DNA from: Terriglobia bacterium
GTDB lineage: Bacteria; Acidobacteriota; Terriglobia; UBA7540
DNA: 64,000 nt
Direction: 5' to 3'
Assembly: GCA_050010015.1 (NCBI GenBank)
Contig: JBEKLY010000001.1
Location: 1,883-65,882 of the forward strand
Shown piece by piece: positions 14,319 through 40,469 of this stretch. Position numbers and translations under genes: made by a program. The stretch's first letter is position 1. Each line of letters opens with the position of its first letter. Under the pieces are notes generated by a model that did not search any database, was not told the origin of the DNA, and was given only the letters and a program-made list of their open reading frames with translations.

Positions 14319-14363
14319 GGGCGAGTGGGAACATGATAGCACAGGAGGGCGAACCACCCCTGA

Positions 14364-23170: not shown

Positions 23171-26100
23171 ATGTCGAAACCTTTTAAGATCACGCTCGCT
23201 CTCATCTTGATGGCGGTCGCCCCGGTCTCAGTGGCGATTGCGGTCATGAGCACGTCGTGGTTTCGCCAAGCCCTGGAGCGCCGGCTGATTGTGGCGCTCG
23301 AAGACGCGACCGGGGGGAAGGTTGAAGTTCAGAGCTTCCGCTTCCACCCCTTCGTGCTGCAAGCGATTTTCCAAGGGCTTGTCCTGCACGGAAGCGAATC
23401 GCCCCAGTCGCCGCCTCTTTTCTCTGCCCGCACCATCGTGCTTCGTCTCAGTCCCGCGAATTTACTGCATCGCGAAATCCGCATCATGGCACTCGATTGG
23501 GACGGTGCCGAATTACACCTCACGACGAAACCCGATGGCTCGACGAACCTGCCCGGTCCGCTGACCCGCTTTGATCCCGGTCAGGCCATGAGGCAGTTGG
23601 TCGATCTGCGCATTGGCAGGGTAACGATAGCCCACTCCACCTTCTTTTGGGACAACCAAGCGGTCCGATTGGATCTGAGCGCCCGCGACGTGGCGCTGCT
23701 TCTCCACTTGCGAAGCGGGCGCCGCTATGAGGGTAGTCTCACTGCCTCGGCCGTGAACGTTCGCATGCCCGGGCGCGTGCTGCCGACTCTGGCTTTTTCA
23801 TCTCGGTTTGGATTATCGCAAAACGAGTTTGCGGTGCCGTCGCTCGCCTGGCAATTTCACGGCATGGCGGGACAGGCGTCGTTCTCGTTCCACCCACTTC
23901 CCGCGCCTCAAGCCTACTTCTCCTTTCAAACCAGCCTGGACGTGGCGACGCTCAAGCCGCTGCTGAGGCTTCCCGGTTTGCAGACGGGGAACGTGCGCCT
24001 GGAAGGTCAAGGGATCTACCGCCAGGGCGAACTCGCGGTGCGAGGGCGAGTCCAGTCCCATCAAATCCTTTATCGCGATGCTCAATTCGATTCCGGGCCG
24101 GTCGAGGCCTCGGCTGATTATTCCCTGGACCACTCGCGTGTAACGCTTTCCAATTTGAAGGTGGCCGGCTGGGGAGGCAACGCGCAAGGAGACGGCCAGG
24201 TCCGTCTCACCGGGGCCGCGCCTCAGGTCGACCTGCGCCTCCGCCTGCGTAATATGAATCTGCCGATGTTAATGCAGAGTTCCAAAAGGCAACCTCGGCT
24301 GATTGCCCAAGTGCCGCCGGCTTGTTTGGTCGATGGAACAGTGGAGCTGACCTCGGCTGGCGAATTCCAAAACCTCAGGTCGAAATTTGATTTGCATTTG
24401 TCGCCACTCGCCGCGCCTCCTTCGGGCGCTCTTCCCATTACCGGCAGCATGCAGGGATCATTGGAAATCAATCGCGGCTTCTCAGTAAACCTGGAGAGTT
24501 CGAGTCTGGCGACACCGCATTCGCTTCTTAAAGCTAAGGGAACACTGGTCGAATCGACGGAGCGCGGTGAACCGCCGGGCCGCCTCGAAATCCAGCTCGA
24601 GACGACGCAACTTCAGGAATGGCGGTTTCTGCTCGGGGCGCAATTCGTGTCAGACTTTCGCCTTCCACTCACGCTCGATTCGCAGGCAGCCATGGATGGC
24701 GAACTCCTGGGCTCGATCGAGAGTCCCGAAGTGCGTGGCTCGGTGCGCGTGGGCAAGTTCGAGTATCGCGGCGGAACCTGGGACGGCCTGAAGGCCAACA
24801 TCGACGTTTCGCCGGACTCCTTGCACGTGTCTTCCGGACAGCTTTCACGCGGACCGAGCGTGCTCAACATCGACGGCTCTGCGCAGCTCGAGGATTGGGG
24901 GATTTCTCGATCCTCTCAAGTGCGTTTATCGGCCCGGGCAGAACGTACGCCCTTGGAGGGCCTCAAAGCAGCATTCGGCGTCGACGAACCTGTCTCCGGC
25001 GAGGCTAGCGGGAAGGTTAACTTTCGAGGCACGGCATCGAATCTCGCCGGAAGCGGCGATGTCAAATTGGAAAACGCCGACATCGCAGGGGAGAGCTTCA
25101 ATTCTGTTTCGGCTAAAATCCGAATCCACGGAACTTCTTTGGACCTCAGCGCGCTTGAGGTTTTGAAGGGCCGCGGCAAGATCACGGGAAAAGCACAGGT
25201 CGATACTGCTACTCGAGCCATGTCGTGCCAGCTTCACGGAACCGGTCTCTCTCTTGCTGACTTCAGGCGACTGGAACCGCTCCGAGGGGCAGGCCTTGTG
25301 CCTGCCCAGGGCGTCCGCGAGGGGCGCCCGCCGAGCCCACTGGAAGGCCAGGCAAGCTTTGACCTGGAAGGCAGCGGCACTCCCGACCATCTTCACTTTC
25401 ACTCCACGGGACTCCTCCAAGACATCAGAATTGACGGCGTCGAGGTCGGCAACCTCCGCCTTCAAATGAACGCCGAGGGCCGCGACATTCAATTCCAAGG
25501 CGTGGCCTCCGGAACCGCAGGGCCGTTCAGCCTGGAGGGCAATGCCCAGGCCACGGGTGACTGGCCGCTCCAACTGCAAGGCCAATACGTGTCTCTGCGC
25601 CTGGATCCATGGGCTCGCCTGCTCGCGAACGCCAAGTTCGACGCCCAGGTCACCGCCAGCGGCTCCTTCAAGGGAACTGGTTCTCTCCGTGATGCTTCGA
25701 AGCTCGATGTGCATAGTGAGATTGGGACGCTGGAGGTGAGCTTTCCCTCTCTGAAATGGCGGAACGAGCATGCCGTCGAAGTCCGCTACGCCGATAATCG
25801 CATCTCCGCTCAGCCCTTTCGCATGCAGGGCCCCGCCACGGACCTGGTTGTTGACGGCTCTCTTCTGCTTGCGGGCGCGCCGTCGCTCTCCTTGAACGTG
25901 CAAGGGGTTGCCGACGCCACCATTCTGAGCCTGGTTGAGCCGGGCTTACAGGCCTCCGGGCAATCGCGGATCAGGTTGAGCGTGTCGGGTTCGCCCGCGA
26001 GACCTCAGATGAACGGAACGCTTGACATCCGCGACGTGGGCCTCGAATACCCGGGCCTGCCCCTTCGCTTGAGCGGCCTTAACGGCGAGGTCCAACTCGA

Positions 26101-27187
26101 GGGAGAGCGGGCGACCGTGAAGTCTTTGCGCGGGGTGAGCGGCGGCGGCCCCGTCACTTTAGATGGTTTTGTGACCCTGGCCTTGCCGCCACGCTTCGAT
26201 TTGCGCGTCGAACTCGATCAAGTCAGGGTGCGCTACCCCGTGGACTTCATTTCCATTCTGGGTGGGACTCTGCGGTTGGAGGGAACGTCGGAGCGCTCTC
26301 AGCTCCACGGCGACCTGGCTCTCAGCCAGGTGCTGGCCAGCGGGAGCAAGCCCTGGCTTAACCAAATCATGCAGAGTGCGAGCCCCTTCGAACCTCCGGC
26401 GCCGTCGGCGACTTCTTCCCTGGCCAACTCCATCCGGCTGAATATTCGAGTGGCCACGCCTACTCCGGTGAGATTACAGATGCAGGATATGCGGTTGACT
26501 GCGGATGTTGATGTGCGCGTCGAAGGGAGCTTGGCGAACCCCGTGGATCTGGGCGACGTGCACTTCCTGGATGGCGAAGCAGTGGTTCGAGGCAATCGCT
26601 TCACCCTCACCCGTGGTGATCTGAATATGACCAATCCCCTGCGAACCCAGGCCACCCTCGATTTGGAGGCTCAGACCCGCGTCCAGCAATATGACCTTAC
26701 GGTTGATGTCTCGGGCCCGCCGGGAAGGCTGAAAATCACGTACCGTTCTGATCCGCCGCTCCCTACGGAAGAAGTTTTCTCGCTGCTGGCGCTCGGCTAC
26801 GCGCCGCAACAACAGCAGGGATCCACATCCGGAATTGTCAGCTCCTTCGCCGCAGGCAACCCGACGCAATCCGTGGGAGAAAGCGCCCTGCTCTCTCAAG
26901 CCCTCTCGACCCAGGTGGGCGGCCGCATCCAGCGGCTCTTTGGCGTTAGCCGCATCCAGATCGATCCCAACGTGGGACTGCCGGGATTCAATAACGGCGA
27001 GCGCATAACCATCGAGCAGCAGGTGACCAAAGACTTGACGCTCACCTATATTACCAACACTGCTTCTTCGCAATATCAGATTATCCAGTTTGAATATGCC
27101 TTCGGTGAAAACATCTCGCTGCTCGGCGTCCGCGACCCGAACGGAATTGTGGGAGTTGAGTTGAGATTCCGGCGGCGATTCAAGTGA
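23171..27187 (+). CDS. tamB: translocation and assembly module protein TamB (AsmA-like, DUF490 C-terminus)
   Basis: 1338 aa. N-terminal membrane anchor, long beta-rich body, and C-terminus ...QIIQFEYAFGENISLLGVRDPNGIVGVELRFRRRFK. Adjacent to the Omp85 gene. Confidence 0.8.
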   Translation: MSKPFKITLALILMAVAPVSVAIAVMSTSWFRQALERRLIVALEDATGGKVEVQSFRFHPFVLQAIFQGLVLHGSESPQSPPLFSARTIVLRLSPANLLHREIRIMALDWDGAELHLTTKPDGSTNLPGPLTRFDPGQAMRQLVDLRIGRVTIAHSTFFWDNQAVRLDLSARDVALLLHLRSGRRYEGSLTASAVNVRMPGRVLPTLAFSSRFGLSQNEFAVPSLAWQFHGMAGQASFSFHPLPAPQAYFSFQTSLDVATLKPLLRLPGLQTGNVRLEGQGIYRQGELAVRGRVQSHQILYRDAQFDSGPVEASADYSLDHSRVTLSNLKVAGWGGNAQGDGQVRLTGAAPQVDLRLRLRNMNLPMLMQSSKRQPRLIAQVPPACLVDGTVELTSAGEFQNLRSKFDLHLSPLAAPPSGALPITGSMQGSLEINRGFSVNLESSSLATPHSLLKAKGTLVESTERGEPPGRLEIQLETTQLQEWRFLLGAQFVSDFRLPLTLDSQAAMDGELLGSIESPEVRGSVRVGKFEYRGGTWDGLKANIDVSPDSLHVSSGQLSRGPSVLNIDGSAQLEDWGISRSSQVRLSARAERTPLEGLKAAFGVDEPVSGEASGKVNFRGTASNLAGSGDVKLENADIAGESFNSVSAKIRIHGTSLDLSALEVLKGRGKITGKAQVDTATRAMSCQLHGTGLSLADFRRLEPLRGAGLVPAQGVREGRPPSPLEGQASFDLEGSGTPDHLHFHSTGLLQDIRIDGVEVGNLRLQMNAEGRDIQFQGVASGTAGPFSLEGNAQATGDWPLQLQGQYVSLRLDPWARLLANAKFDAQVTASGSFKGTGSLRDASKLDVHSEIGTLEVSFPSLKWRNEHAVEVRYADNRISAQPFRMQGPATDLVVDGSLLLAGAPSLSLNVQGVADATILSLVEPGLQASGQSRIRLSVSGSPARPQMNGTLDIRDVGLEYPGLPLRLSGLNGEVQLEGERATVKSLRGVSGGGPVTLDGFVTLALPPRFDLRVELDQVRVRYPVDFISILGGTLRLEGTSERSQLHGDLALSQVLASGSKPWLNQIMQSASPFEPPAPSATSSLANSIRLNIRVATPTPVRLQMQDMRLTADVDVRVEGSLANPVDLGDVHFLDGEAVVRGNRFTLTRGDLNMTNPLRTQATLDLEAQTRVQQYDLTVDVSGPPGRLKITYRSDPPLPTEEVFSLLALGYAPQQQQGSTSGIVSSFAAGNPTQSVGESALLSQALSTQVGGRIQRLFGVSRIQIDPNVGLPGFNNGERITIEQQVTKDLTLTYITNTASSQYQIIQFEYAFGENISLLGVRDPNGIVGVELRFRRRFK

Positions 27188-27382
27188 CAGGGGCTAGGGA
27201 CTGGGGGCTAGGGGCTGGGGATTTGCGATTTGTGATTTCTGATTTGTGATTATCAGTGTGGGTTTCGAATCGGGTTTGCAGTTTTGGTTTTTGAAATCTG
27301 CGATTTGCAATCTGAAATTCCCCGCCGCCCAGCGCCCACTTCCTACTGCCTACTGCGTACTGCCCACTGCCTACTGCCTTCT
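27188..27382. repeat. three successive 7-nt-period tracts (GGCTAGG-type, GATTTGT-type, CTACTGC-type)
   Basis: Direct reading between the tamB stop and tRNA-Ser. Confidence 0.75.
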
Positions 27383-27423: not shown

Positions 27424-27513
27424 GGAGAGGTGTCCGAGTGGCTGAAGGAGCACGCTTGGAAAGCGTGTTTGGGGGAAACTCCAACGTGGGTTCGAATCCC
27501 ACCCTCTCCGCCA
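27424..27513 (+). tRNA. tRNA-Ser (anticodon GGA)
   Basis: Acceptor stem GGAGAGG/CCTCTCC plus G-CCA. Anticodon stem CACGC/GCGTG with loop TTGGAAA. Long variable arm. T arm GTGGG-TTCGAAT-CCCAC. Confidence 0.95.
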
Positions 27514-27768
27514 CCCTACGCTAAAGCTTCGGGTGGCCGGCCACCCGGAGGTTTAGCGTAGGGTGTCTCCCGAAGCTTCAGCGCAGGGAGACTGGCGTTC
27601 ATGTGGTATGTCTATTTTCTCCAGCTTAAAAACGGCGATATTTATGTCGGGTCGACAAACGATCTGAAGCGCCGTTTCTCTTCGCACCAATTGGGACAGG
27701 TCCTCTCAACAAAGCGGAATCTCCCGGTTAAACTAAAGAGCTACGTGGCCGTTGAATCTGAGGCTCTG
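27491..27768 (+). repeat. left 278-bp direct repeat (tRNA 3' end, two hairpins, GIY-YIG codons 1-56)
   Basis: Colinear, gap-free match to 37450-37727. 16 mismatches by hand count. Confidence 0.9.
27514..27563 (+). terminator. long hairpin immediately 3' of the tRNA (possible terminator or processing signal)
   Basis: CCCTACGCTAAA...TTTAGCGTAGGG gives a perfect 12-bp outer stem plus an inner GGTGGCC/GGCCACC stem. No clear U-tract. Confidence 0.35.
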
Positions 27769-27840
27769 GCAAGAGAGCTTGAGAGATATTTCAAATCCGG
27801 CTCCGGTAAGGCTTTTGCGAACAAGCGCTTTTGGGAATAG
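27601..27840 (+). CDS. small GIY-YIG nuclease-domain protein (79 aa)
   Basis: YVYFLQLKNGDIYVGSTNDLKRRFSSH matches the GIY..YVG..R core of GIY-YIG/UPF0213-type proteins. Confidence 0.8.
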   Translation: MWYVYFLQLKNGDIYVGSTNDLKRRFSSHQLGQVLSTKRNLPVKLKSYVAVESEALARELERYFKSGSGKAFANKRFWE

Positions 27841-28288
27841 TCTGAGGTGGAGGAGAGGATATGAACGGAGTTCCTCCGGATTTGGAATGCGTAGCGCCAA
27901 TGAGTAGTCCGCGATCTCCGGGCATTACGACTCCGCTCATCGCAGAGCTTAGCTCTGCGCCAGCCGGCGGTATCCTGACACGGTCCACGATCAAACCCCA
28001 ACGTTTCTCTTGCTCCTCGGCGCTCATACCGGCGTACTCGTTGTAGCTCGACCATCGCCAATCTTCCGGGCGGCTGACCAGCCCGGCCCTGACCGGGTTA
28101 AGGTGGATGTACTCGACCTTCTCGTTGTATTCCTTGACGGTGCGCAGGGCGCGGTCGAAGAACCGGGGCTGCCACACCTGGTAGCGCGGACCGCCGCTTC
28201 TTTGGTCCGCGGCTTTTTCAAACGAAGAACCGCGGACCGCAAAAACGGCGGTCCGCGCTTTATTGTGGTAGACTAGGCGAAGCTGGGG
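27791..28288 (-). pseudogene. remnant of a REP-associated tyrosine transposase (RayT/IS200-like Y1), C-terminal half only
   Basis: WQPRFFDRALRTVKEYNEKVEYIHLNPVRAGLVSRPEDWRWSSY is the typical C-terminal signature. The frame is open to 28288 but has no HUH-containing N-terminal domain, and the upstream sequence is REP hairpins. Confidence 0.7.
28181..28259. repeat. REP pair with GCGGACCGC/GCGGTCCGC stems next to the RayT remnant
   Basis: GTAGCGCGGACCGCC...GGTCCGCGGC ... CCGCGGACCGCAAAAACGGCGGTCCGCGC. Near-identical to 31749-31836. Confidence 0.75.
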
Positions 28289-28347
28289 CTATTACACCGA
28301 GAACCGACATAGTGACGAATTCCGCCACACTCTCCAGGTGGTGAACT

Positions 28348-29178
28348 GTGAATGCCAAGACCGTAGTCAGCAATGTGCTCAACAAGATCCGGGTCAAGTG
28401 CTCAGCCTGGTTTGTCCGGCTGTCGGTTGGCTCCTGGCCCAGAGGGCTTTCGCCCGTTGCCGGCGCGTTCACATTTGGGGTGGCGATGACTTTCGTACAG
28501 GTCGAAGAATATGCCCTCGCTCTCCTCCTTCTCGTCTTCTGCCCAATAGTTTTGCCTCGGGATGACCGGCTGAACGCATACGTAAATCAGCGCGGGGCGG
28601 CTCACTGGTTCTTTGTGGCGTGGGTGGTGTGGGCGGCGGCGGCATCAGCATGGGTCAACGAAAGGAGAGGCGACAATAGTTGGTCAAATTTTTCTCCTCC
28701 TTCGAGTTATGGGAAGCTTGGCGGGGTGTCGTTGGAGCCTGATCCGGCGCCAACCGCGAGCCGGGAGGATGGATTGTTTGGCGTTCGTACCAAGGTTTTC
28801 TTGACTGAGCCACGCGTCGAGAACGCCCAACTCAGGGTCCGTGGCGGCGCGATGGAGGGCAATGTTGTTTGGGCGTTACGCCCTACGGGGAAAGAAACTC
28901 CAGTTGTTCCTCCTTTAACTCGCGTTGTGACTTTGCAGATAAGATCGGGTACGACGCCGGTCGTAACCTGCCTGAATCTGCAATTAAAAAACAAGAAAAT
29001 GCTTGGTTTGGCATTGCCGGGCTGGATTTGGCCAACAGACTATTGCGTAAGACAGGTTTTCCAGCCGCATATTGCGTATTCGGACATCGTTCCGGTCCTG
29101 GAATTTGATAAGGTCAGCGACGAATTGCTGAAGCGTGAAAAGAGTGAGGACTGCGCGTATGAAGCTAAAAATAAATAG
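28348..29178 (+). CDS. hypothetical membrane protein (276 aa, or 230 aa from ATG 28486)
   Basis: Two to three hydrophobic helices (YALALLLLVFCPIVL, WFFVAWVVWAAAASAWV), then a soluble domain. No motif recognised. Confidence 0.5.
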   Translation: MNAKTVVSNVLNKIRVKCSAWFVRLSVGSWPRGLSPVAGAFTFGVAMTFVQVEEYALALLLLVFCPIVLPRDDRLNAYVNQRGAAHWFFVAWVVWAAAASAWVNERRGDNSWSNFSPPSSYGKLGGVSLEPDPAPTASREDGLFGVRTKVFLTEPRVENAQLRVRGGAMEGNVVWALRPTGKETPVVPPLTRVVTLQIRSGTTPVVTCLNLQLKNKKMLGLALPGWIWPTDYCVRQVFQPHIAYSDIVPVLEFDKVSDELLKREKSEDCAYEAKNK

Positions 29179-30787
29179 GAGAGTTAAATTCCGGCTCTCA
29201 TGCTTCCTGTTGGGTGCCGGCTTGCTCCTCCTCTGTATTGTGCAGACGATTAATACGGCTAATGGACAAGTGCCTAAGGAACGGGAGGCTGCCTCCGGCT
29301 GCGAAAACGCCACGCTGTCGTTCAAAGGGGACACTGGGATTGTGACGATCTGTTCGGCCGCCTCGGCGGCTGCGCCCGCGGTCCTGCAACGCCTTTCGAC
29401 TCTGGCCAAACAAAGCGAAAAGTTAGACCAGATTGAAGACTTCGTCAAAGAGATCAACAAGGCGGGACACCTTCTGGACAAGCGCGTCAATGCTTTTGCA
29501 GAGAAGCTAAACATCGTTCTCGAGAATGAGCAAGGGCGTTCCGATGCCCAACTGATGAGGGACGTCGAAATGCTCACCATGCAGTTGCAGGATATCCGGG
29601 AACGAATCGACACAGAAAAACAGAATCCGGCGTCGGCGGCGAAAGTGCAAACAGCGATCGCCGGTCCAGTTGGCGATGCCATCGCCCAACTCGATCTCAC
29701 AAAGGCGCGCGATCTCCTGGAAGACATCCGGGTACAATTGCACGACATCAAGGGCGACACCAGCGCCATCCTGGGCACGCTTAAGGACCAAGAGGAACTC
29801 CGGAAAAAGGCGGACAATGATCCCAATCTGTTCGCGCGGGCCACGATGTATGGGAACAAAAACGCCTATACATTTGGTGGAAAATGGCGACTCATGTCAA
29901 CCATAGTTGTTTCCCACCCGTTTATCGATCCCACCTTGCGAATTGCTTTCAGGGGCAACGGCCGGGCCTGGGTAGTGAACGTGGTTGAGCGCATGAATGC
30001 ACCGACAGGTGGCGACTACTGGCAGTTCACCACGGAGGAGCTTGGCGACACGGCGGTCGCGTGTCTGGCGGGAAATGACACTACGGCAGGAACGCGGCGG
30101 CAGTGGACGCAGAAATTCGCTGTCCGACAAAGTGGGACTATGGCCACTTTCGCCTCGATCGGCGAGCCAACTCTGACCCCGGGGGAGACACCGCTCTGCG
30201 ACGGAGTAACCGAGGTGCGCGAGGCTGCCACCGACTTGCCCAGCGCCCTCGCGCCGGGTCAAAAAACTGCGGAGCAGAGGGCCCAGGAGATAATGGCCAA
30301 AAGTCAGCAGCAGATGAACGATATGCTGGCGCAGGCTGCAAAGAATCGGGAGACGGACCCAAGACTATTCGGTCGCATCTCGGTCTCTGCAACCAGGAAG
30401 GATAACTCAAACGGTGGTAACTGGCTGCTGGAAGTAACGACAGCCCCAGCCCGCATCGGGCAAACCTACTACGATGTCAACGTGCAGGTCGCCCTGAAGA
30501 GCGCCGAGAACAAGGTTCGGCCTGTACAGCTTTCGAACCGCGAAATATTCGTCAACATGGAGAGCCGCTACGCATGGGTCGATAATCTGGGAACTGAAGC
30601 GGTGGTGTGCTACACGGCCCGCGACCCTTCGCGGCCGGGGCCGATGCGCATGACGCAGTGGTTCACCGTGGAAACTCGCCGGGTAATGTGGACGGATCAG
30701 CAGCCCCCAACGCCGGGCGGAGCCGCAAGTTTTGTTCCCTCAAAGCCGGCGGCTTTGGCGCCCGCAAGCAACGCGGCCTGCCAGTAA
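29159..30787 (+). CDS. hypothetical secreted or membrane-anchored protein with coiled-coil regions and an internal domain duplication (542 aa)
   Basis: N-terminal hydrophobic segment FRLSCFLLGAGLLLLCIV. Two helical stretches, each followed by a related domain: DPNLFARA..GGKWRL..QWTQKFAV and DPRLFGRI..GGNWLL..TQWFTV. Confidence 0.6.
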   Translation: MKLKINRRVKFRLSCFLLGAGLLLLCIVQTINTANGQVPKEREAASGCENATLSFKGDTGIVTICSAASAAAPAVLQRLSTLAKQSEKLDQIEDFVKEINKAGHLLDKRVNAFAEKLNIVLENEQGRSDAQLMRDVEMLTMQLQDIRERIDTEKQNPASAAKVQTAIAGPVGDAIAQLDLTKARDLLEDIRVQLHDIKGDTSAILGTLKDQEELRKKADNDPNLFARATMYGNKNAYTFGGKWRLMSTIVVSHPFIDPTLRIAFRGNGRAWVVNVVERMNAPTGGDYWQFTTEELGDTAVACLAGNDTTAGTRRQWTQKFAVRQSGTMATFASIGEPTLTPGETPLCDGVTEVREAATDLPSALAPGQKTAEQRAQEIMAKSQQQMNDMLAQAAKNRETDPRLFGRISVSATRKDNSNGGNWLLEVTTAPARIGQTYYDVNVQVALKSAENKVRPVQLSNREIFVNMESRYAWVDNLGTEAVVCYTARDPSRPGPMRMTQWFTVETRRVMWTDQQPPTPGGAASFVPSKPAALAPASNAACQ

Positions 30788-31037
30788 GCTGCCAATTCAG
30801 CCAGTTCACCAAGTTGAGATCGCCTTCGCCCCGGCGACTCCCAAGCCGGCTAGAGAGATAACCCCGGCGGCTGGCGCGAAGCTCTGCGGTCTTGATGCAT
30901 CGCAACGATTGGAACGTAGCGCTTCGCCCTGCGCGTGCCCCGCGCTTGGTCATGTTTGGTTGCGGCTCTGCCGCACTGCGTGACGTACGGGGCCAGCGAA
31001 GTCGCAGAGATTCTCGACAAGCGTGGAACTCCTTCTG

Positions 31038-31380
31038 TTAGCTGCGCGCGGGATGCAATGCCCGCTCGACACCTCGGGGATCGCGCGCGATGACGGTGAG
31101 GTAGGCTTTGGCCGGTTGGTCGGGCTCCGAGCGGCCCTGTTCCCAATCCCGCAGAGTTCCAAGAGGGATTTTGAAGCGTGCGGCAAATTCCTCCTGGGTC
31201 AGCACGAGGGCGCGGCGGGTAGTGTCTCAGTTTGAATTCGTAGCGGCGAGTTTACCTCGCCAAATGGCGGCGTAACGCCGCCTCTACTTCAAACTGAGAC
31301 ACTACCGCGCGGCAAAGTGTTTTGACACGCTGGCTGGCGCAGACCCCGAACCGAGGAGTCTGCGTCCGCCGAGGTGCCAT
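31038..31380 (-). pseudogene. XRE-family HTH antitoxin-like gene interrupted by a MITE-like element
   Basis: Downstream part reads LVLTQEEFAARFKIPLGTLRDWEQGRSEPDQPAKAYLTVIARDP. Upstream part reads MAPRRTQTPRFGVCASQRVKTLCRA. Removing 97 nt (element plus one GCGCGGC copy) joins them in frame. Confidence 0.65.
31219..31305. mobile_element. 87-bp palindromic MITE-like element with perfect 18-bp terminal inverted repeats
   Basis: GTAGTGTCTCAGTTTGAA ... TTCAAACTGAGACACTAC encloses two small hairpins. Flanked by direct GCGCGGC at 31210-31216 and 31307-31313. Confidence 0.75.
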
Positions 31381-31404
31381 CGGAGTGGTTAACTGCGTTA
31401 ATAC

Positions 31405-31433
31405 TTGACAAATCGTATGAAATAGGCTAGAAG
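31405..31433 (+). promoter_or_regulatory. candidate promoter pointing into the repeat array (TTGACA-17 nt-TAGAAG)
   Basis: Perfect -35 and 17-nt spacer, but a weak -10 lacking the final T. Confidence 0.25.
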
Positions 31434-31557
31434 TGTTATGTGAGGTTGGGCAGGGGGTTGAGCCCTGCCGGGTACGCTATGCCAGAAAGTCCTCTTTTGT
31501 TTTCGTCCGTAGTTCCTGCGTGTGGTTTCTGGCTCCAAGTACAGTCGAGAAGTCGAG

Positions 31558-32048
31558 GTAGCGCGGAGGTACGCGTTCTTCGCGTTCCTCCGCGGTTCTT
31601 CGCTTCCGCTTGCGCGATCCGGAATGCGCGTTCGGCCGAAAGGCCGCGGAGGAAGCCGGACTGCGGCTACCTCCGCGCTACGTGTTCCAGAATCGAGGGA
31701 ACAAAGCGAGAATGCCTATGAAAACAAAGGATAAGTACAAAACGTTTGGTAGCGCAGACCGCCGGTTCTGCGGTCTGCGGCTTTTCCATGATAGCTGGGA
31801 CGGGCCGCGGACCGCAAACACGGCGGTCCGCGCTACACCATAATCGAGGGAACAAAGCGAGAATGTCTATGAAAACAAACGAAGAGGTCAAAAAGTCGAG
31901 AAACCCCTCACCCGGCTCGCTACTCTCGCCACCCTCTCCCCCGCTGGAGAGGGGCCGTTGATGACGTTTGATTTCGGCGCACAAAAATTGGGGGAACAAA
32001 GCCAGAATGTTCATGAAAACAAAGGACAAGTACAAAATGTCCTCCTAG
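31558..32048 (+). repeat. array of three ~145-150-bp units, each a different palindromic REP followed by a conserved 54-nt module
   Basis: Modules at 31691-31744, 31842-31895 and 31986-32039: AATCGAGGGAACAAAGCGAGAATGyCTATGAAAACAAAGGAyAAGTACAAAAyG. Confidence 0.8.
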
Positions 32049-32293
32049 AGCGAGGTCCCGGCGAGGACTTCGAGCCCTTTCTCGAAGCCGTGGGCGTCGA
32101 AGGCTTCCTCGCGCTTGCGGTTGTCGAATGGGTCATTCGTCTAAAGCCAGCGGGTACCGGGCCATGCCTGACGATTCGCCCAGGCGCGAGGCGGAATCGG
32201 GTTTCGAGCAGCGGTGGTTTGCTTTTATGGTGTTCAATGTATTGTGCCAAAACTCCTTAGCCGGACAGGACCTCCCAAAGCATGATTGGAAGC

Positions 32294-32410
32294 ATGGCAT
32301 TAACCTCAGGGACCAAGCTCGGTCCCTATGAGATTAAGGATAAGCTGGGCGCGGGCGGGTGTAGGAGGCAGCCCAAGGATACCGCCTGGCCCACGGAAAC
32401 GAACCGGTAA
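32294..32410 (+). pseudogene. stub of a Ser/Thr protein kinase gene (first 22 codons only)
   Basis: MALTSGTKLGPYEIKDKLGAGG is the canonical start of Hanks-type kinases up to the Gly-rich loop. Homology ends after GG and a stop follows 16 codons later. Confidence 0.6.
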
Positions 32411-32592
32411 CTCTGGCGCCGCCGATTTCCAAAGCGTAGATGGCGATTCCCCGACGTCGCTGATTCGCCACAAGGGCGGCGCTTCATGGAACACACGACT
32501 GCCGTTGACGTCCGAGGCGAAGGTGGTCTATAACCCTAACGGCCTTTGGCAGTCGTCCGAACGACAGACACCGAGGCCTTTGCCGAACCAAG

Positions 32593-33795
32593 ATGGTCAT
32601 TGAAACCCTACGTCAACTGAAGGAGTTCTGCGAGAGTCTCGACGATTGCCGTGAGATCTGCGTTGACACAGAGTTCTTAGGTGAGGGTCGCTACTATCCC
32701 GAACTTGGGATTATTCAGGTAGCCGCGGATGGCCACGCAGTGCTCGTCGACCCGCACGCGATCACTGACCTATCGCCGCTTGTTCCCATCCTCACACGCG
32801 GTACAACCGAGAAGATTGTCCACGCCGGCCTCTCCGACCTGAGAATCCTATTCCGCTCGCTGGGACATGCGATCTCACCGGTCTTTGACACCCAGATTGC
32901 GGCAGCACTACTCGGCTACGGCGATCAGCTTTCCCTCAAGAACCTCGTTCACCAGGTCTTGGGTATACAGCTTGACAAACAGGAGCGGTACACTGATTGG
33001 TCTCGGCGGCCGCTCTCAACCGCCCAAGTTGATTACGCTTTGAATGACGTCCGCTGGTTGGGAGAATTGCGCGATAAGCTCACAGCTAGCCTCATAAGCC
33101 AATCTCGCCTGGATTGGGCAAAGGGCGAATTTCGGCTTCTTGAGGATGCACAGAGCGTGTGGGGAGACGACCCGGTGGAAGTCGCGTCCAAAACCCGTGG
33201 CGCGGGCCAACTGGACCGTGGGCAAATGGCTCGGCTCGTCGAGCTGATCTCTTGGCGCGACAAAGTTGCGGAGCAGCTCAATCTTCCGGTAGGCCGAGTG
33301 GCGCGTGACGAAGTGCTATTCGAGTTAGCCCGACGCCCAAGGAACTCGCTACGTCAGCTCGGCGAGATCCGCGGCTTCACTTACCGCCAGGTCGAGCAAT
33401 TTGGCGAGGATCTTGTCAAAGTCTTGCGGCGTTCGCCGAGCAGTGCGGACCAGGCTCGCGGAGAGGCGGCCTTGCTCGCCATCGCAGCGCGGACCCCTCC
33501 CACGCCGGACCTGGAACTGAAGGCGGACTTTCTGGAGCTCTGCTTGAATGTGGTGGCGCAGGAGAGTGCCGTCGCGAGGAGAATGCTGGCGACCCGCAAT
33601 GACCTCCTGGCCCTTGCAACCCGTGGTGATGAAGCGCCAGTGCAGCTGCTCCAGGGCTGGCGTCGCGGCCTTGCGGGCGACAAGTTGCTTGCGGCTCTGG
33701 CGGGTCGGGCGGAGGTGCGCGTCGATGCTGACACGCGCCGTGTAGTGGTCAACTGGCTGACTGGAACACAGGTAAGTCAAACGACCAAAGACTGA
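32593..33795 (+). CDS. rnd: ribonuclease D (DEDDy 3'-5' exonuclease plus HRDC)
   Basis: ICVDTEF, KIVHAGLSDL, YALNDVRWL exonuclease motifs and an HRDC-like middle domain. 400 aa. Confidence 0.8.
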   Translation: MVIETLRQLKEFCESLDDCREICVDTEFLGEGRYYPELGIIQVAADGHAVLVDPHAITDLSPLVPILTRGTTEKIVHAGLSDLRILFRSLGHAISPVFDTQIAAALLGYGDQLSLKNLVHQVLGIQLDKQERYTDWSRRPLSTAQVDYALNDVRWLGELRDKLTASLISQSRLDWAKGEFRLLEDAQSVWGDDPVEVASKTRGAGQLDRGQMARLVELISWRDKVAEQLNLPVGRVARDEVLFELARRPRNSLRQLGEIRGFTYRQVEQFGEDLVKVLRRSPSSADQARGEAALLAIAARTPPTPDLELKADFLELCLNVVAQESAVARRMLATRNDLLALATRGDEAPVQLLQGWRRGLAGDKLLAALAGRAEVRVDADTRRVVVNWLTGTQVSQTTKD

Positions 33796-34312
33796 GACTC
33801 CAGGAGAAACAAGACAGCTCCCAGGAACAGTAGCGGTAGTAACGGTTGTGAACCTTGAGCTAGGTTGAACTTGCGGGAGCGGAGCGTTTTTGTCGTTCCC
33901 TTTGGCTATCCAGCAACCGTCTTCAAGCAAGTCGACCGCGACCCACAGCCGAAGCCGCACAGTGAGGCAGGCTTCACTTCGAGAATGGGCTGGCTAGGGC
34001 GGCGCCTTTGAGCGGTTTTCGGCCACTCAACCGTAGCGTCCGCAACCGGCAGGAGAAAACCTGGGGAAACAAGCAGGGGAGATGGCGAGCTGTCCGAGAA
34101 ATCGGTTGGGAAACGGGTCAGGGTGCCGATTGACTCCATCTTGAAGGCGCACACCTGGCTGCCAGACGGCGCGCTTGCAACTGAGGCGTGAAATTGCGGC
34201 TGCGAATGAGCCGGTGGGTGTATACTGCCTGGGTTCAGGATGCCAAAATGGAAATCTCGGCTTACATTCGTGGGAGGGGCGGGATCCAATCCAGAGAGCT
34301 TCACGACAGACG

Positions 34313-34519
34313 ATGGACGTCAACGGCCAAGCAGGAGAAACGGCAGGGAATGTCTGGAAAGCGCTTTCGAGCGCCGGGCCGCAGACTCTGGCCCAACTGA
34401 AGAGGCTCAACGGATCCGTTGAGCTTGTGGGCTTCGGCCTGGGATGGCTGGCCCGCGAGGACAAAATCGAGATCATCCTGGAGAAGAAGAGCTTTCGCGT
34501 GCGGTTGAAGCAAGAGTGA
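34313..34519 (+). CDS. small winged-helix protein (DUF2582-like, 68 aa)
   Basis: AGNVWKALSSAGPQTLAQLKRLNGSVELVGFGLGWLAREDKIEI pattern. ATG at 34313 is preferred over the TTG at 34175. Confidence 0.55.
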   Translation: MDVNGQAGETAGNVWKALSSAGPQTLAQLKRLNGSVELVGFGLGWLAREDKIEIILEKKSFRVRLKQE

Positions 34520-34556
34520 ATGTCTCCCCGCCCCGCAACGGCTGCATCTCAAGAAC

Positions 34557-35543
34557 ATGCGAACCATAACCCTCGAAGAACATTTCGCAACTCCAGGTTT
34601 CCTCGACAGCCCCTGGGGGCGCGAACTCAAGGCGCGGGCCTCGAAATTCGGAGGGGCGGCCGCAAAGCTCTTGGAACGACTCTGCGACGTCGGCGAGGGG
34701 AGAATCGCCGAGATGGATGCCGCAGGGATTGATGCGCAGGTGCTTTCGCTCACCTCTCCTGGCACCGAACAGGCCGAAGCGGCCGATGCGGTGGCGCTCG
34801 CCCGTGAAGCAAACGACTTCCTCGCCGATGCCGTCAAGAAGAATCCGGCACGCCTCGCGGGATTTGCCGCGCTCCCAACGGCAGCGCCGGACAAGGCCGC
34901 CGAGGAATTGGAGCGGATGGTCCGCGAGCATGGCTTCAAGGGAGCGCTCATCAACGGCCACAGCCGGGGACGCTATCTCGACGACAAATTCTTCTGGCCG
35001 ATCCTCGAACGCGCCGAGGCGCTGAACGTCCCCATCTACCTCCACCCCACGCAGCCTCCCAGGCCGGTGATTGAAGCATCCTATGGCGGTTTCTCGCCGA
35101 TCGTCACCGAACTCCTCGCGGGGGCGGGCTGGGGCTGGCACATCGAGACCGCGATTCATGTCCTCCGGCTCATCCTCGGGGGCGCGTTCGACAGATATCC
35201 GAAGCTCCAGATTGTGATCGGCCACATGGGGGAGGCCTTGCCCTTCATGCTGCAGCGGCTTGACGTCATGCCAATGGCAATGACAAAGCTCAGCCGCCCC
35301 ATAAGCGCCTACCTCCGCGAGAACGTGCATTACACCTTCAGCGGCTTCAACTTCACGCCGACATTCCTGGATCTGATGCTCCAGGTCGGCGTCGAGCGGA
35401 TCATGTTCTCGGCCGACCACCCGTACGCATCGATGGCGGAGGCGCGGGGATTCCTGGACCGACTGCCTGTGAGCAGCGCCGACAGGCTGCGGATCGCGCA
35501 CGGAAACGCGGAACGTCTCTTCGGGTTCGGAGCAGCTGGCTAA
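34557..35543 (+). CDS. amidohydrolase-2 family protein (ACMSD-type metal-dependent hydrolase/decarboxylase)
   Basis: ITLEEHF N-terminus, MDAAGID.QVLS, FKGALINGH, and a C-terminal FSADHPY-type motif. Confidence 0.8.
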   Translation: MRTITLEEHFATPGFLDSPWGRELKARASKFGGAAAKLLERLCDVGEGRIAEMDAAGIDAQVLSLTSPGTEQAEAADAVALAREANDFLADAVKKNPARLAGFAALPTAAPDKAAEELERMVREHGFKGALINGHSRGRYLDDKFFWPILERAEALNVPIYLHPTQPPRPVIEASYGGFSPIVTELLAGAGWGWHIETAIHVLRLILGGAFDRYPKLQIVIGHMGEALPFMLQRLDVMPMAMTKLSRPISAYLRENVHYTFSGFNFTPTFLDLMLQVGVERIMFSADHPYASMAEARGFLDRLPVSSADRLRIAHGNAERLFGFGAAG

Positions 35544-35730
35544 GGGTGCCTAATCCCACTCGGCGGCAGTCTGGCCCTGGCTCCTTCCGCCGCCTTACAC
35601 CTTTACCTCCCCGTCCATTGCGGCCGCCACGAACCTGTTCGTGTTCACGCCTTTGAACTGGCCGACCTGGCGGCCGCTCCGCAGAGGCTTGTTGAGTAAC
35701 TGTCCGCAGCTTTTCCAACGGAGGTCTCGA

Positions 35731-37062
35731 ATGGGCCCGCAACTTCAGACCGAACCAATCCAACCCCAGACGGAGAATCCAAAGTGGAGCCTGGCCGTCC
35801 GGATTGGCTTTCGATTCTGCCTTATATACTTGGGGCTGTATTGTCTTGCCACGCAAATCATCACCAGCCTGTTCTCCAGCACCCAGGGAGCAGACATTCC
35901 CGACCCGTCCACGCTTTGGCCTATGCGCCCCGTCGTCTTCTGGACCGCCACCCATATCCTCCACGTCAGGGCGCCTTTGTCTCTCGGCGGCAATAGTGGC
36001 AGCGGCGACTGCATGTTCGGCTGGGTCCTGGCCTTCTGCTTGCTCGCGATTGCCGTCTTCGCGACCGGCATCTGGTCCCTTGTCGACCGCAGGCGGGAAA
36101 ACTACGTCGGGTTGCACAAGTGGTTTTGGATTTTTGCTCGTTTCGCGCTCGCCGGACAGATGATTAACTACGGCATGTTTAAAGTCATCCCGTTGCAAAT
36201 GCCGTATCCGACATTAACCAGGTTGCTTCAGCCTTTCGGCACGTTCTCTCCCATGGGGGTCCTCTGGTCTTCGATCGGCGCTTCCCCGGTTTATGAGATC
36301 TTCGCCGGGTGCGCGGAAGTAGTCGGTGGACTGCTGCTCATCCTTCCTCGCACGGCCAGCTTCGGCGCCCTGATCTGCCTCGCCGACATGATCCAGGTCT
36401 TCATGCTAAACATGACCTACGATGTGCCGGTGAAACTGTTTGCCTTCCACCTCATCCTGCTCGCCTGTTTCCTCCTGGCCCCCGACCTTCCACGTCTCGT
36501 CAGCGTCCTCTTCCTGAATCGTGCCACCGCGCCTTCCCCCCAAGCGCAACTCTTCCGCGCTGCCCGCGCCAACCGGTTCGTGCTCGCCGCGCAAGTCGTA
36601 TTGGGTCTCTGGCTCGTAGGTATGAACGTATACAGCGCTCGGGGGGATTGGAGCGTCTTCGGCGGCGGCAGACCGCACTCGCCGCTATACGGCATCTGGG
36701 AGGTGAGCCGGATGTCGATTGACGAACAACCGCGTCCGCCGCTCCTGACCGACTACGGCCGCTGGCGGCGGGCCATCTTCGATTTCCCCGCCCAGATGGC
36801 ATTTCAGCGGATGGACGATTCGTTCGCTTATTATTCCGCCTCCATCAGTCTCACGGACAAAATTCTCGCCCTCACCAAGAGGGGCGACGAGAACTGGACA
36901 GCGAACTTCACCTTTCAGCGGCCTGCCCGGGAGCAGCTTATCCTGGATGGTCGGATGGACTATGATCAGGTTCACATCGAGCTTCAACTGACTGAGAGCA
37001 ACAAGTTCCTGCTCGTCCGAAGAGGTTTTCACTGGATCCAGGAGTTTACCTTCAATCGCTAG
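35731..37062 (+). CDS. DoxX-like integral membrane protein with a C-terminal extra domain
   Basis: GGAGG Shine-Dalgarno before ATG 35731. Multiple TM helices. AGCAEVVGGLLLILPRTA motif typical of DoxX-like proteins. Confidence 0.65.
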   Translation: MGPQLQTEPIQPQTENPKWSLAVRIGFRFCLIYLGLYCLATQIITSLFSSTQGADIPDPSTLWPMRPVVFWTATHILHVRAPLSLGGNSGSGDCMFGWVLAFCLLAIAVFATGIWSLVDRRRENYVGLHKWFWIFARFALAGQMINYGMFKVIPLQMPYPTLTRLLQPFGTFSPMGVLWSSIGASPVYEIFAGCAEVVGGLLLILPRTASFGALICLADMIQVFMLNMTYDVPVKLFAFHLILLACFLLAPDLPRLVSVLFLNRATAPSPQAQLFRAARANRFVLAAQVVLGLWLVGMNVYSARGDWSVFGGGRPHSPLYGIWEVSRMSIDEQPRPPLLTDYGRWRRAIFDFPAQMAFQRMDDSFAYYSASISLTDKILALTKRGDENWTANFTFQRPAREQLILDGRMDYDQVHIELQLTESNKFLLVRRGFHWIQEFTFNR

Positions 37063-37449
37063 CTTGGAGGCATACAGCAGTGGCCGACGCCGAAGCCGGT
37101 CACTTCCGTGTAGCGGGCATAACCCGAAAGTATTCCACTCGGCCCTGCTCGTACAAGTACCGTGCAACTGCGCAGAATCTGAGTGAATGAGCTTGTCCTC
37201 GACGATTACCCGCGATTAACGGCGAAGGGTTTGCCTATGCGACGCCGCCGATCTGTCTCCGAGCAGCTAACTAACGCCAGTTGGATACCTGGGCTGTTCC
37301 CTTCCTAAGCCTTCCTAAGACAACTCGCGAAAATGTCGGTGGCAAATCTTGCGGGAAAACCTACAAAAACTCCAACCCGGCGCAAAACGCCATTGACATC
37401 AGGCACCTGAGAATTTACGAAATTCTCCGGGAAAACCACGATGGACGAC

Positions 37450-37727
37450 TTCGAATCCCACCCTCTCCGCCACCCTACGCTAAAGCTTCAGTTGGCTGGC
37501 CACCCGGAGTTTTAGCGTAGGGTGTCTCCCGAAGCTTCAGCGCAGGGAGACAGGCATCCATGTGGCATGTCTATTTTCTCCAGCTCAAAAACGGCGACAT
37601 TTACGTCGGGTCGACAAACGATCTGAAGCGCCGTTTCTCTTCGCACCCATTGGGACAGGTCCTTTCAACAAAGGGGAATCTCCCGGTTAAACTAAAGAGC
37701 TACGTAGCCGTCGAATCTGAGGCTCTG
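37450..37727 (+). repeat. right 278-bp direct repeat (displaced tRNA-Ser 3' end, hairpins, GIY-YIG codons 1-56)
   Basis: Starts exactly at TTCGAATCCCACCCTCTCCGCCA. There is no T-stem partner or rest of the tRNA upstream. Confidence 0.9.
37560..37727 (+). pseudogene. truncated GIY-YIG gene copy (56 codons)
   Basis: MWHVYFLQLKNGDIYVGSTNDLKRRFSSHPLGQ... is colinear with 27601-27768. Homology stops at 37727, and the remainder of track ORF 37560-38081 is read-through. Confidence 0.8.
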
Positions 37728-37974
37728 TGCGCCCTACGGAGCTGGAATGGACGCGCTCTATGCGCAGGCACGGATGAGAAAATCGCGGACCGGAGTTCCG
37801 ATGACCCGCACGGAGCATTGCACGAGGCGAAGAACGCTGCGGCGCTTTCGGCAACGAGTTTGAGGGCAGAGGGGGCCAGAGGGTCCCAAAGAGGGGACCG
37901 CAGCCAAAGGGCCGCCGTGAACGGGATGACAAAGAAAGGTGAGCGAAAGGAAGCTGAGTTTGATTCCCGTATGC

Positions 37975-38660
37975 TTATTGTTCGGGTGTCTCGTCTCCGC
38001 CTCGGGCATCGTCCCGGCTGCCCATGGCGTAGAGTAGCAGCTCGGCACGACTGGAAATCCCGAGTTTATTGTAAATGTTAAACAGGTGATTCTTGACAGT
38101 GTGCGAGCTCAGGCCGAGGGAGTGCGAATCTCGCCGTTCGGAAGGCCTTCGGCGACCATGCGAACGATTTGCTCCTCTCGCTCGGTAAGGATGGGTTTGC
38201 CTTTGGCGTTGGCGATGTGGATCTTTCCTCTGCTTTCCAACGCTTGCATGATCCAGTGTAGTTGGCCGCTGTCGGCCCAGATCTGCCCCGCATGCACGCA
38301 CCGAATGCATTTGCACAATGCCGGGAAGTCCTCGTTCAGGCAGAAAACGCCTCGTGCTCCGTGCGAGAAGGCATCGACCACCTGCTCAGCGTCTACACAA
38401 TCCAACAGGACAATAACACGCGCTGATGAGCCGATCAGGTTGAGCTCTCGCAAGCCCCGCAATCCCCCAGTCGCTTCGTTTTCCAGGTTCGCGCTTATGA
38501 GAACCACGTCGGGCTGATGCTCCGCCACCTTTTCGAAAAAATCCTTCCGATTATGCACTGTAGCAACCACATTAAAGTGCTTGCGGCGCTGGCCGAGTGC
38601 CAGACCAAGTAGGTGATTCGCCAAGGTGTTTGAAGCGGCGATCAGAATTGATATGGTCAT
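37975..38660 (-). pseudogene. NarL/LuxR-family response regulator with a degenerate receiver domain and an apparent -1 frameshift near 38120-38130
   Basis: The REC-like part lies in ORF 38109-38660. The LuxR HTH (HSLGLSSHTVKNHLFNIYNKLGISSRAELLLYA) lies in ORF 37975-38316. The two frames join if one base is restored at ...GAGATT^CGCACTCC... Confidence 0.7.
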
Positions 38661-39929: not shown

Positions 39930-40469
39930 ATGAGCGCAGTTTTGGACGACATAGCGCGAATAATTGCCAGGCCCATCCCGCGAAGACAAGCGTTGAGGCT
40001 TGTCGGCGGAGTAGTGGGCGGCACAATAGCTGCGGCCCTCGGCAAAGCGAAGGGTTTGGGTAGCTGGGCGGCGCAGGTTGGGGGCGCATCGGTTGGGAAG
40101 TCCCCAAAATGTGGGCGTGGCCAGTTCGCCTGCGGCACCGGCAGCCGCGCGGTATGCTGCTCATCAGGCAAGACCTGCTGCGGCAACACCACCGTCGGGT
40201 TCACGTGTTGCGGTTCGAGTCAAGGCTGCTGCACGGACGCAAAGACAGCTTATTGCGCTCCTCCGCGGTCGACGTGTTGCAAAGGCGCACACTGCGGCTC
40301 AACCCAGTCCTGCTGCAATGGGAAGTGCTGCGACAAACTCTCACACGAGACGTGTTGCGGCACCACCAGTAGCGGCGTATGCTGCAGCTCGGGCAAGGTA
40401 TGCTGCGGTGGCAGGTGCTGCAGATCGGGCCCGTCTGCAAGCAATCCCTGTACAAGCGCCCGATGCTAG
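39930..40469 (+). CDS. Tat-signal, cysteine-rich secreted protein with granulin-like CC-doublet spacing (179 aa, 28 Cys)
   Basis: GAAGGAGG Shine-Dalgarno 6 nt before the ATG. PRRQALRLVGGVVGGTIAAALG is a twin-arginine-type signal. Eleven CC doublets. Confidence 0.7.
   Translation: MSAVLDDIARIIARPIPRRQALRLVGGVVGGTIAAALGKAKGLGSWAAQVGGASVGKSPKCGRGQFACGTGSRAVCCSSGKTCCGNTTVGFTCCGSSQGCCTDAKTAYCAPPRSTCCKGAHCGSTQSCCNGKCCDKLSHETCCGTTSSGVCCSSGKVCCGGRCCRSGPSASNPCTSARC

Follow-up and report, generated by a model that had tools for sequence, protein, structure and literature searches.

A stretch of 64,000 nucleotides from a Terriglobia metagenome-assembled genome from peat (contig JBEKLY010000001.1; hereafter the window) carries, downstream of a tRNA-Ser(GGA) gene, two copies of a 278-bp direct repeat with 9.7 kb between them. 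Each copy comprises the tail of the tRNA, two hairpins and the first part of a tiny gene for a GIY-YIG nuclease, and this combination is a conserved module found behind tRNA genes in several phyla. tRNA genes are classic landing sites of genomic islands, and the usual account of such islands requires an integrase. The window departs from that account in the module itself and in a 10-kb accessory segment that has apparently been gained or lost through ordinary recombination between copies of it. We lean, if only slightly, towards a reading in which the left copy is the resident module and the right copy a displaced and decayed one, with mosaic DNA of an integration hot spot between them, and in which the copies provide portable homology for host recombination.

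In a gap-free alignment of 278 nt the two copies differed at 16 positions (94.2% identity; MAFFT, repeat search, and blastn with E=8e-123), and their homology ended abruptly at either edge. The repeat pair and its surroundings have the following parts.

27424-27513, plus strand: intact tRNA-Ser(GGA) gene, CCA encoded (ARAGORN; Rfam RF00005, 57 bits)
27491-27768, plus strand: left repeat copy, with tRNA tail (27491-27513), spacer (27514-27600) and GIY-YIG codons 1-56
27512-27592, plus strand: structured spacer with two hairpins (folding, cross-phylum conservation, covariation)
27601-27840, plus strand: left GIY-YIG gene, intact, 79 aa, UPF0213/COG2827-like (PF01541, E=2.4e-13)
37450-37727, plus strand: right repeat copy, with an orphan 23-nt tRNA-Ser tail (37450-37472), spacer (37473-37559) and GIY-YIG codons 1-56 (37560-37727)
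37560-38081, plus strand: right open reading frame (ORF) of 173 aa, GIY-YIG in its first 56-57 codons only (Pfam, alignment)

The first 23 nt of each copy are the end of tRNA-Ser from the T-loop to CCA. The tRNA-Ser(GGA) gene lies downstream of tamB (23171-27187) and is the sole tRNA gene of the window according to ARAGORN and Rfam; the body of a tRNA-Ser(CGA) gene was also searched for in the window and was not found. On the left the tRNA and the 79-aa gene are intact, while the right copy has no tRNA body and reads into unrelated sequence after codon 56. An earlier note on this DNA, made from its letters alone, had counted the 16 mismatches by hand and described the same contents and the same asymmetry, and formal alignment, ARAGORN, folding and Pfam agree with it on each of these points. 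At least three independent metagenome assemblies (L002, L003 and L012/L013) have both copies together on one long contig, and the repeat is therefore not an assembly artefact. The left GIY-YIG protein had an identical sequence on 22 contigs.

A 54-nt palindrome at 27512-27565 (27512/27514-27563) forms hairpin 1; its 27-nt arms are 93% complementary, and it abuts or overlaps the CCA. Hairpin 2 occupies 27565-27592, and its 3' arm GGGAGAC includes a Shine-Dalgarno-like GGAG located 10 nt before the ATG. The spacer of the left copy had a folding energy of -60.8 kcal/mol (z=-6.9) and that of the right copy -54.4 kcal/mol (z=-6.4). A sigma-70-like promoter was searched for in the spacer and was not found.

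Haplotypes of the species were recovered by exact-protein look-ups. H1 is that of the window and is present on long contigs from several samples; H2 is represented by L001, L004 and L106, H3 by L009, H4 by L104 and L105, and H5 by L170. Comparison with L001, together with Pfam and repeat searches, divided the DNA from the left GIY-YIG gene to the right flank as follows.

27791-28177, minus strand: C-terminal fragment of RayT (repetitive extragenic palindromic (REP)-associated tyrosine transposase), 128-aa ORF (NF047646, E=7e-15)
28181-28259, no strand: REP-like palindrome pair (repeat search)
28260-31026, plus strand: cassette of the window haplotype with two orphan ORFs, 28348-29178 and 29135-30787 (against L001)
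31027-33848, no strand: backbone in common with L001 (blastn, 83-97.6%; gaps in the match at 31218-31367 and 31962-32335)
31038-31205, minus strand: HTH_3/HigA-like remnant (Pfam)
31558-32040, no strand: 59-nt repeats and REP-type palindromes (repeat search)
32593-33795, in the backbone: RNase D (Pfam)
33849-37206, plus strand: cassette of the window haplotype (against L001)
34175-34519, plus strand: DUF2582 (Pfam)
34557-35543, plus strand: Amidohydro_2 (Pfam)
35641-37062, plus strand: 473-aa membrane-like ORF, no Pfam or NCBIfam match
37343-37811, plus strand: 469-bp block without counterpart in L001, made up of 107 nt, the right repeat copy and 84 nt (alignment, blastn)

H2 was 96-97% identical to the window over tamB, the tRNA, the GIY-YIG gene and RayT as far as 28259, and in blastn the homology between the window and L001 stopped exactly at this position, the end of the REP-like palindrome pair. 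After it, H2 has a full RayT, DUF6585, HigB and DinB instead of the window cassette. It then retains 31027-31217, 31368-31961 and the RNase D stretch 32336-33848 in the same order as the window. After RNase D, DUF4357 and a methyltransferase stand in place of the 33849-37206 cassette, and 37207-37342 is again in common. L001 joins 37342 straight to 37812. L009 (H3) was an additional recombinant. The GC content was 0.587 between the repeats and 0.591 and 0.601 in the flanks, with tetranucleotide z<=1.3. Because L001 keeps the backbone with other cassettes and without 37343-37811, and because the composition equals that of the flanks, the 10 kb between the repeats is a mosaic accessory region and not a single foreign island. 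The earlier note had taken these ~10 kb for one element integrated at a tRNA 3' end, which the retention of the backbone in L001 without the right copy contradicts, and the comparison of GC and tetranucleotides that it proposed showed nothing foreign.

The region 27514-37449 has 96 stop-to-stop frames that reach 60 aa or more, and all of them were scanned with a cut-off of E<=0.01. PF00589, PF00239, PF07508 or DDE gave no match there, and the absence of a tyrosine or serine recombinase, which had been noticed by eye, was thus borne out. The Pfam matches in these frames were GIY-YIG, HTH_3/HTH_31, RNase D (DNA_pol_A_exo1 and HRDC), DUF2582, Amidohydro_2 and Endotoxin_mid only, the last being marginal (E=0.006) and probably spurious. 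Neither of the two orphan ORFs in 28260-31026 had a family match. The list of cargo genes given earlier held for the RayT fragment, the HTH_3 fragment, RNase D, DUF2582 and Amidohydro_2; the supposed 'DoxX' at 35641-37062 had no match in Pfam or NCBIfam. The RayT fragment is the C-terminal third of the protein and overlaps the 3' end of the left GIY-YIG gene, and full-length RayT (245-246 aa) was found in L001 and L104 (NF047646, E=1e-18 for the L001 version). Three 59-nt direct repeats (31687, 31838 and 31982), spaced 144-151 nt apart, are interleaved with REP-like palindromes at 31558-31681 and 31804-31836. These palindromes resemble the pair at 28181-28259, and the whole is like a bacterial interspersed mosaic element (BIME) array near RayT, partly common to L001.

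Contigs with recombinant junctions between the two copies were found for H4 and H5. L104 and L105 contain 37172-37449 and the tRNA tail, then the nucleotides of the right copy (R-type) at all 14 single-nucleotide polymorphism (SNP) sites in 27531-27715, and then those of the left copy (L-type) at 27747 and 27753. After the switch they match the sequence downstream of the left copy to 28259, L104 exactly and L105 with a few private SNPs, and beyond it they enter a full RayT, the N-terminus of which is lacking in the window. Both encode P0003, a full-length GIY-YIG protein with the right-copy private residues H3, P30 and G39. L170, which encodes P0122, is the mirror image, with 14 L-type SNPs, two R-type SNPs and then 37728-38161. 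It is a collapsed single-copy allele, in which the sequence right of 37727 follows directly. The SNP strings of the three contigs place the exchange in one short interval.

27716-27746, no strand: exchange interval of 31 bp, identical in both copies (right equivalent 37675-37705; SNP strings of L104, L105 and L170)

This interval corresponds to codons 39-49 of the GIY-YIG ORF and not to the tRNA tail. All four pairings of a 5' block with a 3' block and its flank exist, and L104/L105 and L170 are, by their SNP patterns, the two junctions expected of a reciprocal crossover between the repeats. The crossover could be an unequal sister exchange (duplication and deletion), an excision (circle and deletion) or a Campbell-type integration. 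All three contigs, each from a different sample, switch in one block even though three longer identical blocks (40-43 nt) exist, which argues for one real event rather than chimeras. The idea in the earlier note that the tRNA-end/GIY-YIG module itself takes part in the rearrangement holds in the sense that the module is the homology in which the crossovers map, and only in that sense. Its repeat-less or empty allele was found in part: L001 is without the right repeat and L170 has a single copy joined to the sequence right of 37727, but the tRNA of L170 is Ser(CGA). The first bases of L170 are the 3'-terminal 78 nt of a tRNA-Ser(CGA) gene, identical to that in L103, and the last 30 nt of this tRNA are the same as the last 30 nt of tRNA-Ser(GGA). 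The right copy may therefore descend from a tRNA-Ser(CGA)-linked module, a suggestion that comes from this one contig.

The module was surveyed in one-genome-per-species contigs, from which the 80 best loci, encoding 73-85%-identical GIY-YIG proteins of 78-79 aa, were taken. A same-strand tRNA gene ended 66-236 nt (median 100) upstream of the GIY-YIG gene in 68 of the 80 loci, which belong to several phyla. The linked tRNAs were Ser (53 loci, four anticodons), Arg (five), Met (three), Val, Asp and Ala (two each) and Tyr (one). In all 68 tRNA-linked loci, and thus behind 13 tRNA species, the CCA was directly followed by CCCT. The spacers of these 68 loci have in common the near-invariant blocks CCCTNCGC, GCTTCGGGTGGCAGGCCACC, TCTCCCGAAGC and GCGTAGGGAGAC, which form the two hairpins. 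The length of the repeat, put in the earlier note at roughly ten times that of a normal attachment (att) core, does not reflect an oversized core; it comes from two copies of this conserved tRNA-linked module.

In the spacer alignment 90% of the cells were paired, compared with 40-50% in slid controls. Compensatory changes were found at five hairpin pairs, a count that was reached in none of 500 shuffles. An alternative pairing of the 5' arm of hairpin 1 with the interior of hairpin 2 was not supported, as the covariation follows the hairpin-1 pairing only. In the stem of hairpin 2, half of the sequences (TCGCCC...GGGGGAC type) have a G-G mismatch at alignment columns 74/103 and not a U-A pair, which is a conserved and uncompensated departure from pairing. 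Matches to the hairpin motif numbered 323 inside tRNA-GIY-YIG spacers and 13 outside in 636 kb, which rules out that the hairpins are dispersed REP/BIME palindromes. Between two and five tandem extra hairpin units lie between tRNA and GIY-YIG gene in L023, L030, L085, L090 and L101-L103, with spacers of up to 236 nt, so that the hairpin unit can amplify locally.

In Rfam 15 the spacers of the window had no match at E<=1, and the spacers of 13 other loci had none at the gathering score. A family specific for the protein was not found in Pfam and NCBIfam, which give only generic GIY-YIG families. The searchable literature on GIY-YIG with tRNA, genomic islands, COG2827/YhbQ, BapE and RNA motifs yielded no description of the module. 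The combination of tRNA end, two hairpins and tiny GIY-YIG gene appears to be undescribed. It is the part most worth following up, and culturable carriers such as Mesorhizobium exist.

Copies of the module that have lost their tRNA or stand beside a second copy were also found elsewhere. In seven loci (L040, L079, L088, L089, L092, L096 and L098) the module is preceded by an 8-15-nt tRNA tail only. In three (L051, L085 and L060) a full module is followed by a truncated second one. A degenerate tRNA tail lies 8-74 nt after the gene in L060, L071, L078 and L086 and brackets a unit of 0.4-0.6 kb. Overall, 9 of 69 loci had a copy of the tRNA tail downstream of the module, and an upstream control gave none in 69. 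The window architecture is the same displaced and nested pattern with 9.7 kb in between.

An integrase was found within 3 kb downstream in just 7 of 78 module loci. The six that were traced are from Mesorhizobium, where the integrase lies beyond a porin gene, and a linkage of integrase and module was ruled out on these grounds. Across the genus Mesorhizobium (L024, L029, L031, L034 and others) the order tRNA-Ser(GCT), GIY-YIG gene, porin gene is kept. M. carmichaelinearum (L040) has the same porin flank with a 14-nt tRNA tail alone before the module, which is how the attR side would look if an element had integrated in tRNA-Ser. In two unrelated loci the module is abutted or truncated by a terminal sequence like that of an insertion sequence, GTGTTACC[CA]ATGTGTCCG[GA]TAC...CACCTATCTCTC, which lies upstream in L039 and downstream in L096.

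By sequence and predicted structure, the left protein is a member of the GIY-YIG nuclease superfamily (PF01541). It has about 2,000 relatives, the best of which are 73-92% identical and come from Terriglobia, Mesorhizobium, Caulobacteraceae, Rickettsiales, Binataceae and others. Residues R25, H29 and Y48 were invariant in both family alignments, and Y15 and E54 were invariant in one and at least 90% conserved in the other. The AlphaFold2 (AF2) model, with a predicted local distance difference test (pLDDT) score of 85, has the element order E-E-H-E-H-H of a minimal GIY-YIG core, and neither Pfam nor the model gave any extra or DNA-binding domain in the 79 aa. The closest structures in the PDB, by sequence and by structure, were the uncharacterised UPF0213 proteins 1zg2 and 1ywl. 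A weak similarity to homing-endonuclease families was detected (TIGR01453, E=7e-5; phrog_5123, E=1.5e-3), and the PADLOC defence models did not match the protein.

The codon comparisons indicate that the GIY-YIG family is under strong purifying selection. The median ratio of nonsynonymous to synonymous divergence (dN/dS) was 0.11, synonymous sites were saturated between phyla, and the GC content of third codon positions (GC3) was adapted to the host. The family is therefore old and constrained and has not spread recently, and recent horizontal transfer across phyla as the cause of the ~80% protein identity was ruled out by the same two properties. The non-coding spacer blocks were more conserved than the synonymous sites of the adjacent ORF. 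None of 72,556 plasmids carried the gene, and it was all but missing from 2.9 million viral contigs; a phage or plasmid vehicle was ruled out by these searches.

The locus itself was scanned by a metagenome search with the C-terminus of TamB, which gave 62 loci. The synteny of tamB and tRNA-Ser(GGA) was kept in at least 50 related loci with TamB identities of 53-100%, and the sequence directly after the CCA differed in nearly every lineage. Comparison of the window sequence right of the tRNA with these tamB-locus relatives gave nothing in common. In the scan the GIY-YIG module was present in one of about 50 tamB-tRNA-Ser(GGA) loci (L106), being confined there to the window species. It also occurs at the tamB locus of two distant Terriglobia genomes, L021 and L035 (TamB 56-58%). 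L129 keeps a 13-nt scar, CCCTACGCTAAAG. Islands at the same tRNA in relatives are bracketed by GGTTCGAATCCCACCCTCTCCGCCA, and those repeats begin at the same T-loop position. In the closest relative, L107 (TamB 98%), a tyrosine integrase lies directly 3' of the same tRNA-Ser. A filled and empty pair with a common downstream flank was not found for the module. At 2 kb past the integrase, within 11312-14379, L107 also encodes an anti-defence-like protein that has an Acb2/Tad1 hairpin domain, and the hot spot thus has a different, phage-like occupant there. A palindromic mini-insertion of ~27 nt, CGTACCGTACGGTACGTGGCTCCGCCA, which ends in a second CCGCCA tail, follows the CCA in L127, L143, L144 and L145. 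L152 has a divergent, shorter variant of it, another tiny occupant of the tRNA-Ser site.

According to the reading that we prefer, the left copy would be the intact resident, attached to tRNA-Ser(GGA) and probably co-transcribed with it, and hairpin 2 would mask the ribosome-binding site of its GIY-YIG gene. The right copy would be a second module, displaced and truncated, of which neither the tRNA body nor anything past codon 56 is left. It may be the scar of DNA inserted into a tRNA-Ser gene, perhaps a nearby tRNA-Ser(CGA), at its T-loop. The intervening 9.7 kb would be a recombinase-free mosaic of RayT/REP, remains of toxin-antitoxin systems, orphan genes and a small number of metabolic genes, the cassettes of which strains of one species exchange. 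Host homologous recombination between the module copies, presumably dependent on RecA, for example by unequal crossing-over, would duplicate, delete or circularise the segment. The GIY-YIG protein could home to the CCA or T-loop, cleave att or Holliday intermediates, or process precursor RNA. The strongest hint of something that recognises the tRNA 3' end is the invariant CCA-CCCT junction behind 13 tRNA species.

Several observations weigh against this reading. The recombinant contigs are short (767-1566 nt), and identity stretches of 31 nt and of 34 nt (the tRNA tail) could permit assembly chimeras, a view that is countered by the RayT N-terminus which L104 carries and the window lacks. The tRNA-Ser(CGA) at the start of L170 is not predicted by a simple unequal crossover in a window-like chromosome. 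The copies are 6% apart in the first 225 nt and L104 is identical to the left copy beyond, so that an extra step of conversion or recombination is needed. The 469-bp indel may be a gain or a loss, the exchange may have been an integration or an excision, and the GIY-YIG protein may take an active part in these rearrangements.

The pattern invites comparison with a classical genomic island, in which a tyrosine integrase acting at the T-loop of tRNA-Ser made attL and attR, attP carried a copy of the module, and the integrase gene was later deleted. Williams reportedly described, in 2002, an att sublocation class running from the T-loop to the 3' end for tRNA-targeted islands with tyrosine integrases. 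The window repeat likewise runs from the T-loop to CCA, and the repeats around the islands that relatives carry at this tRNA start in the T-loop too. The left end has the intact tRNA and the right end a displaced tail, and the locus is a hot spot with occupants stacked in tandem. The integrase directly after the same tRNA in L107 and the decayed mobile genes of the region (RayT, HigA fragment) fit as well. We nevertheless regard such an origin as quite improbable. L001 lacks the right repeat and yet retains the backbone with RNase D and 37207-37342; the frames of 60 aa or more contained no trace of a recombinase; and the DNA is mosaic and native in composition. Moreover, the repeat extends 255 nt past the tRNA because of the conserved module, the exchange at 27716-27746 is outside the tail, and only 7 of 78 other modules have an integrase within 3 kb downstream. 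Integrase-less, att-flanked remnants (cis-mobilisable elements) and accretion arrays at the attachment sites of integrative and conjugative elements are also known. Like them, the window has a decayed region bounded by attachment-region repeats, with no recombinase of its own and with successive occupants stacked; unlike cis-mobilisable elements, it has no identified helper integrase, its rearrangements fit homologous rather than site-specific exchange, and its repeat unit encodes a cross-phylum nuclease gene. A recent segmental duplication or an assembly artefact, with chimeric recombinant contigs, would account for the short contigs L017, L020 and L176 that end at or near the repeat and for junctions seen only on contigs of 767-1566 nt. 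We give it very little credence: both copies are on long contigs in independent assemblies, their 6% divergence exceeds the 3-4% between strains, so the duplication was not recent, the switches of three contigs from three samples fall within one 31-nt block, and L104 runs on into sequence absent from the window.

An active role of the protein is the other direction in which the data can be read. The GIY-YIG protein might cut tRNA genes near the T-loop or CCA, with repair copying the tail, the hairpins and the gene beside the tRNA and pushing the prior occupant downstream; such an invasion would have left the right copy as a by-product and may also have cost the region an integrase. The CCA-CCCT invariance, the modules bracketed by degenerate tRNA tails (L060, L071, L078 and L086) with new copies always tRNA-proximal, the patchy distribution with a 13-nt scar in L129, the similarity to TIGR01453 and phrog_5123, and a dN/dS of ~0.1 compatible with element-level selection all speak for homing. 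It seems to us unlikely, since the protein is only 79 aa long and lacks a DNA-binding domain, its spread is not recent (saturated synonymous sites, host-adapted GC3), and its gene is missing from plasmids and virtually so from viral contigs. Also, the filled allele retains the entire tRNA target, a clean empty/filled pair was not found, and the sole mapped crossover is inside the ORF. Among known systems, the Seg proteins of T4 are free-standing GIY-YIG homing endonucleases, and SegB is in the T4 tRNA gene cluster (PMC2330249). The module resembles them in having a small GIY-YIG ORF between conserved genes near a tRNA, and neighbouring markers could be co-converted. Unlike Seg proteins and I-TevI (>200 aa, with DNA-binding domains), its 79-aa protein is a catalytic core only, and it is chromosomal in several bacterial phyla, absent from phage and plasmid collections and always accompanied by two hairpins abutting the CCA. 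Of a wider scope, and doubtful though possible, is a reading in which the double hairpin and the GIY-YIG gene form an undescribed ancient element directed at tRNA genes across phyla, or protecting them. Nuclease and hairpins would work at the tRNA 3' end, by homing insertion exactly after the CCA or by interference with integrases. Its copies, being present at many tRNA genes and at the ends of islands, would also serve as portable homology for recombinase-free entry and exit of DNA at tRNA sites. If tRNA-gene DNA or tRNA precursors are what the module acts on, the best-known bacterial integration hot spots would have a newly recognised player.

The module protein has the same fold and size class as the UPF0213/YhbQ/COG2827 (URI) proteins. 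Its identity to them is ~24-32% only, and searchable papers describe neither tRNA linkage nor a hairpin motif for those proteins. Small 'UvrC-like' endonucleases of Caulobacter have been noted (PMC1839093). As in REP/RayT systems, RayT, a fragment here and intact in sister haplotypes, adjoins REP-like palindromes, and one cassette breakpoint is at a REP. In contrast to those systems, the RayT adjacency is limited to this lineage and the module hairpins are not dispersed.

The right flank contains a further difference between haplotypes.

37975-38660, minus strand: response regulator (receiver and GerE), split by a frameshift into ORFs of 183 aa and 113 aa

This regulator was split in every H1 contig and is a single 228-aa gene in L001. 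A cysteine-rich ORF of 179 aa with many C-x-x-C motifs lies at 39930-40469, and 41600-64000 is taken up by a large cluster of exopolysaccharide/O-antigen type with Wzy_C, Wzz, Poly_export and several glycosyltransferases; neither was found downstream of tamB-tRNA-Ser in relatives. Between tamB and tRNA-Ser, tandem arrays of the heptamers AGGGGCT (x4.6), GATTTGT (x4.6) and GCCTACT (x6.6) occupy 27189-27251 and 27334-27379, where a promoter or regulatory role is possible.

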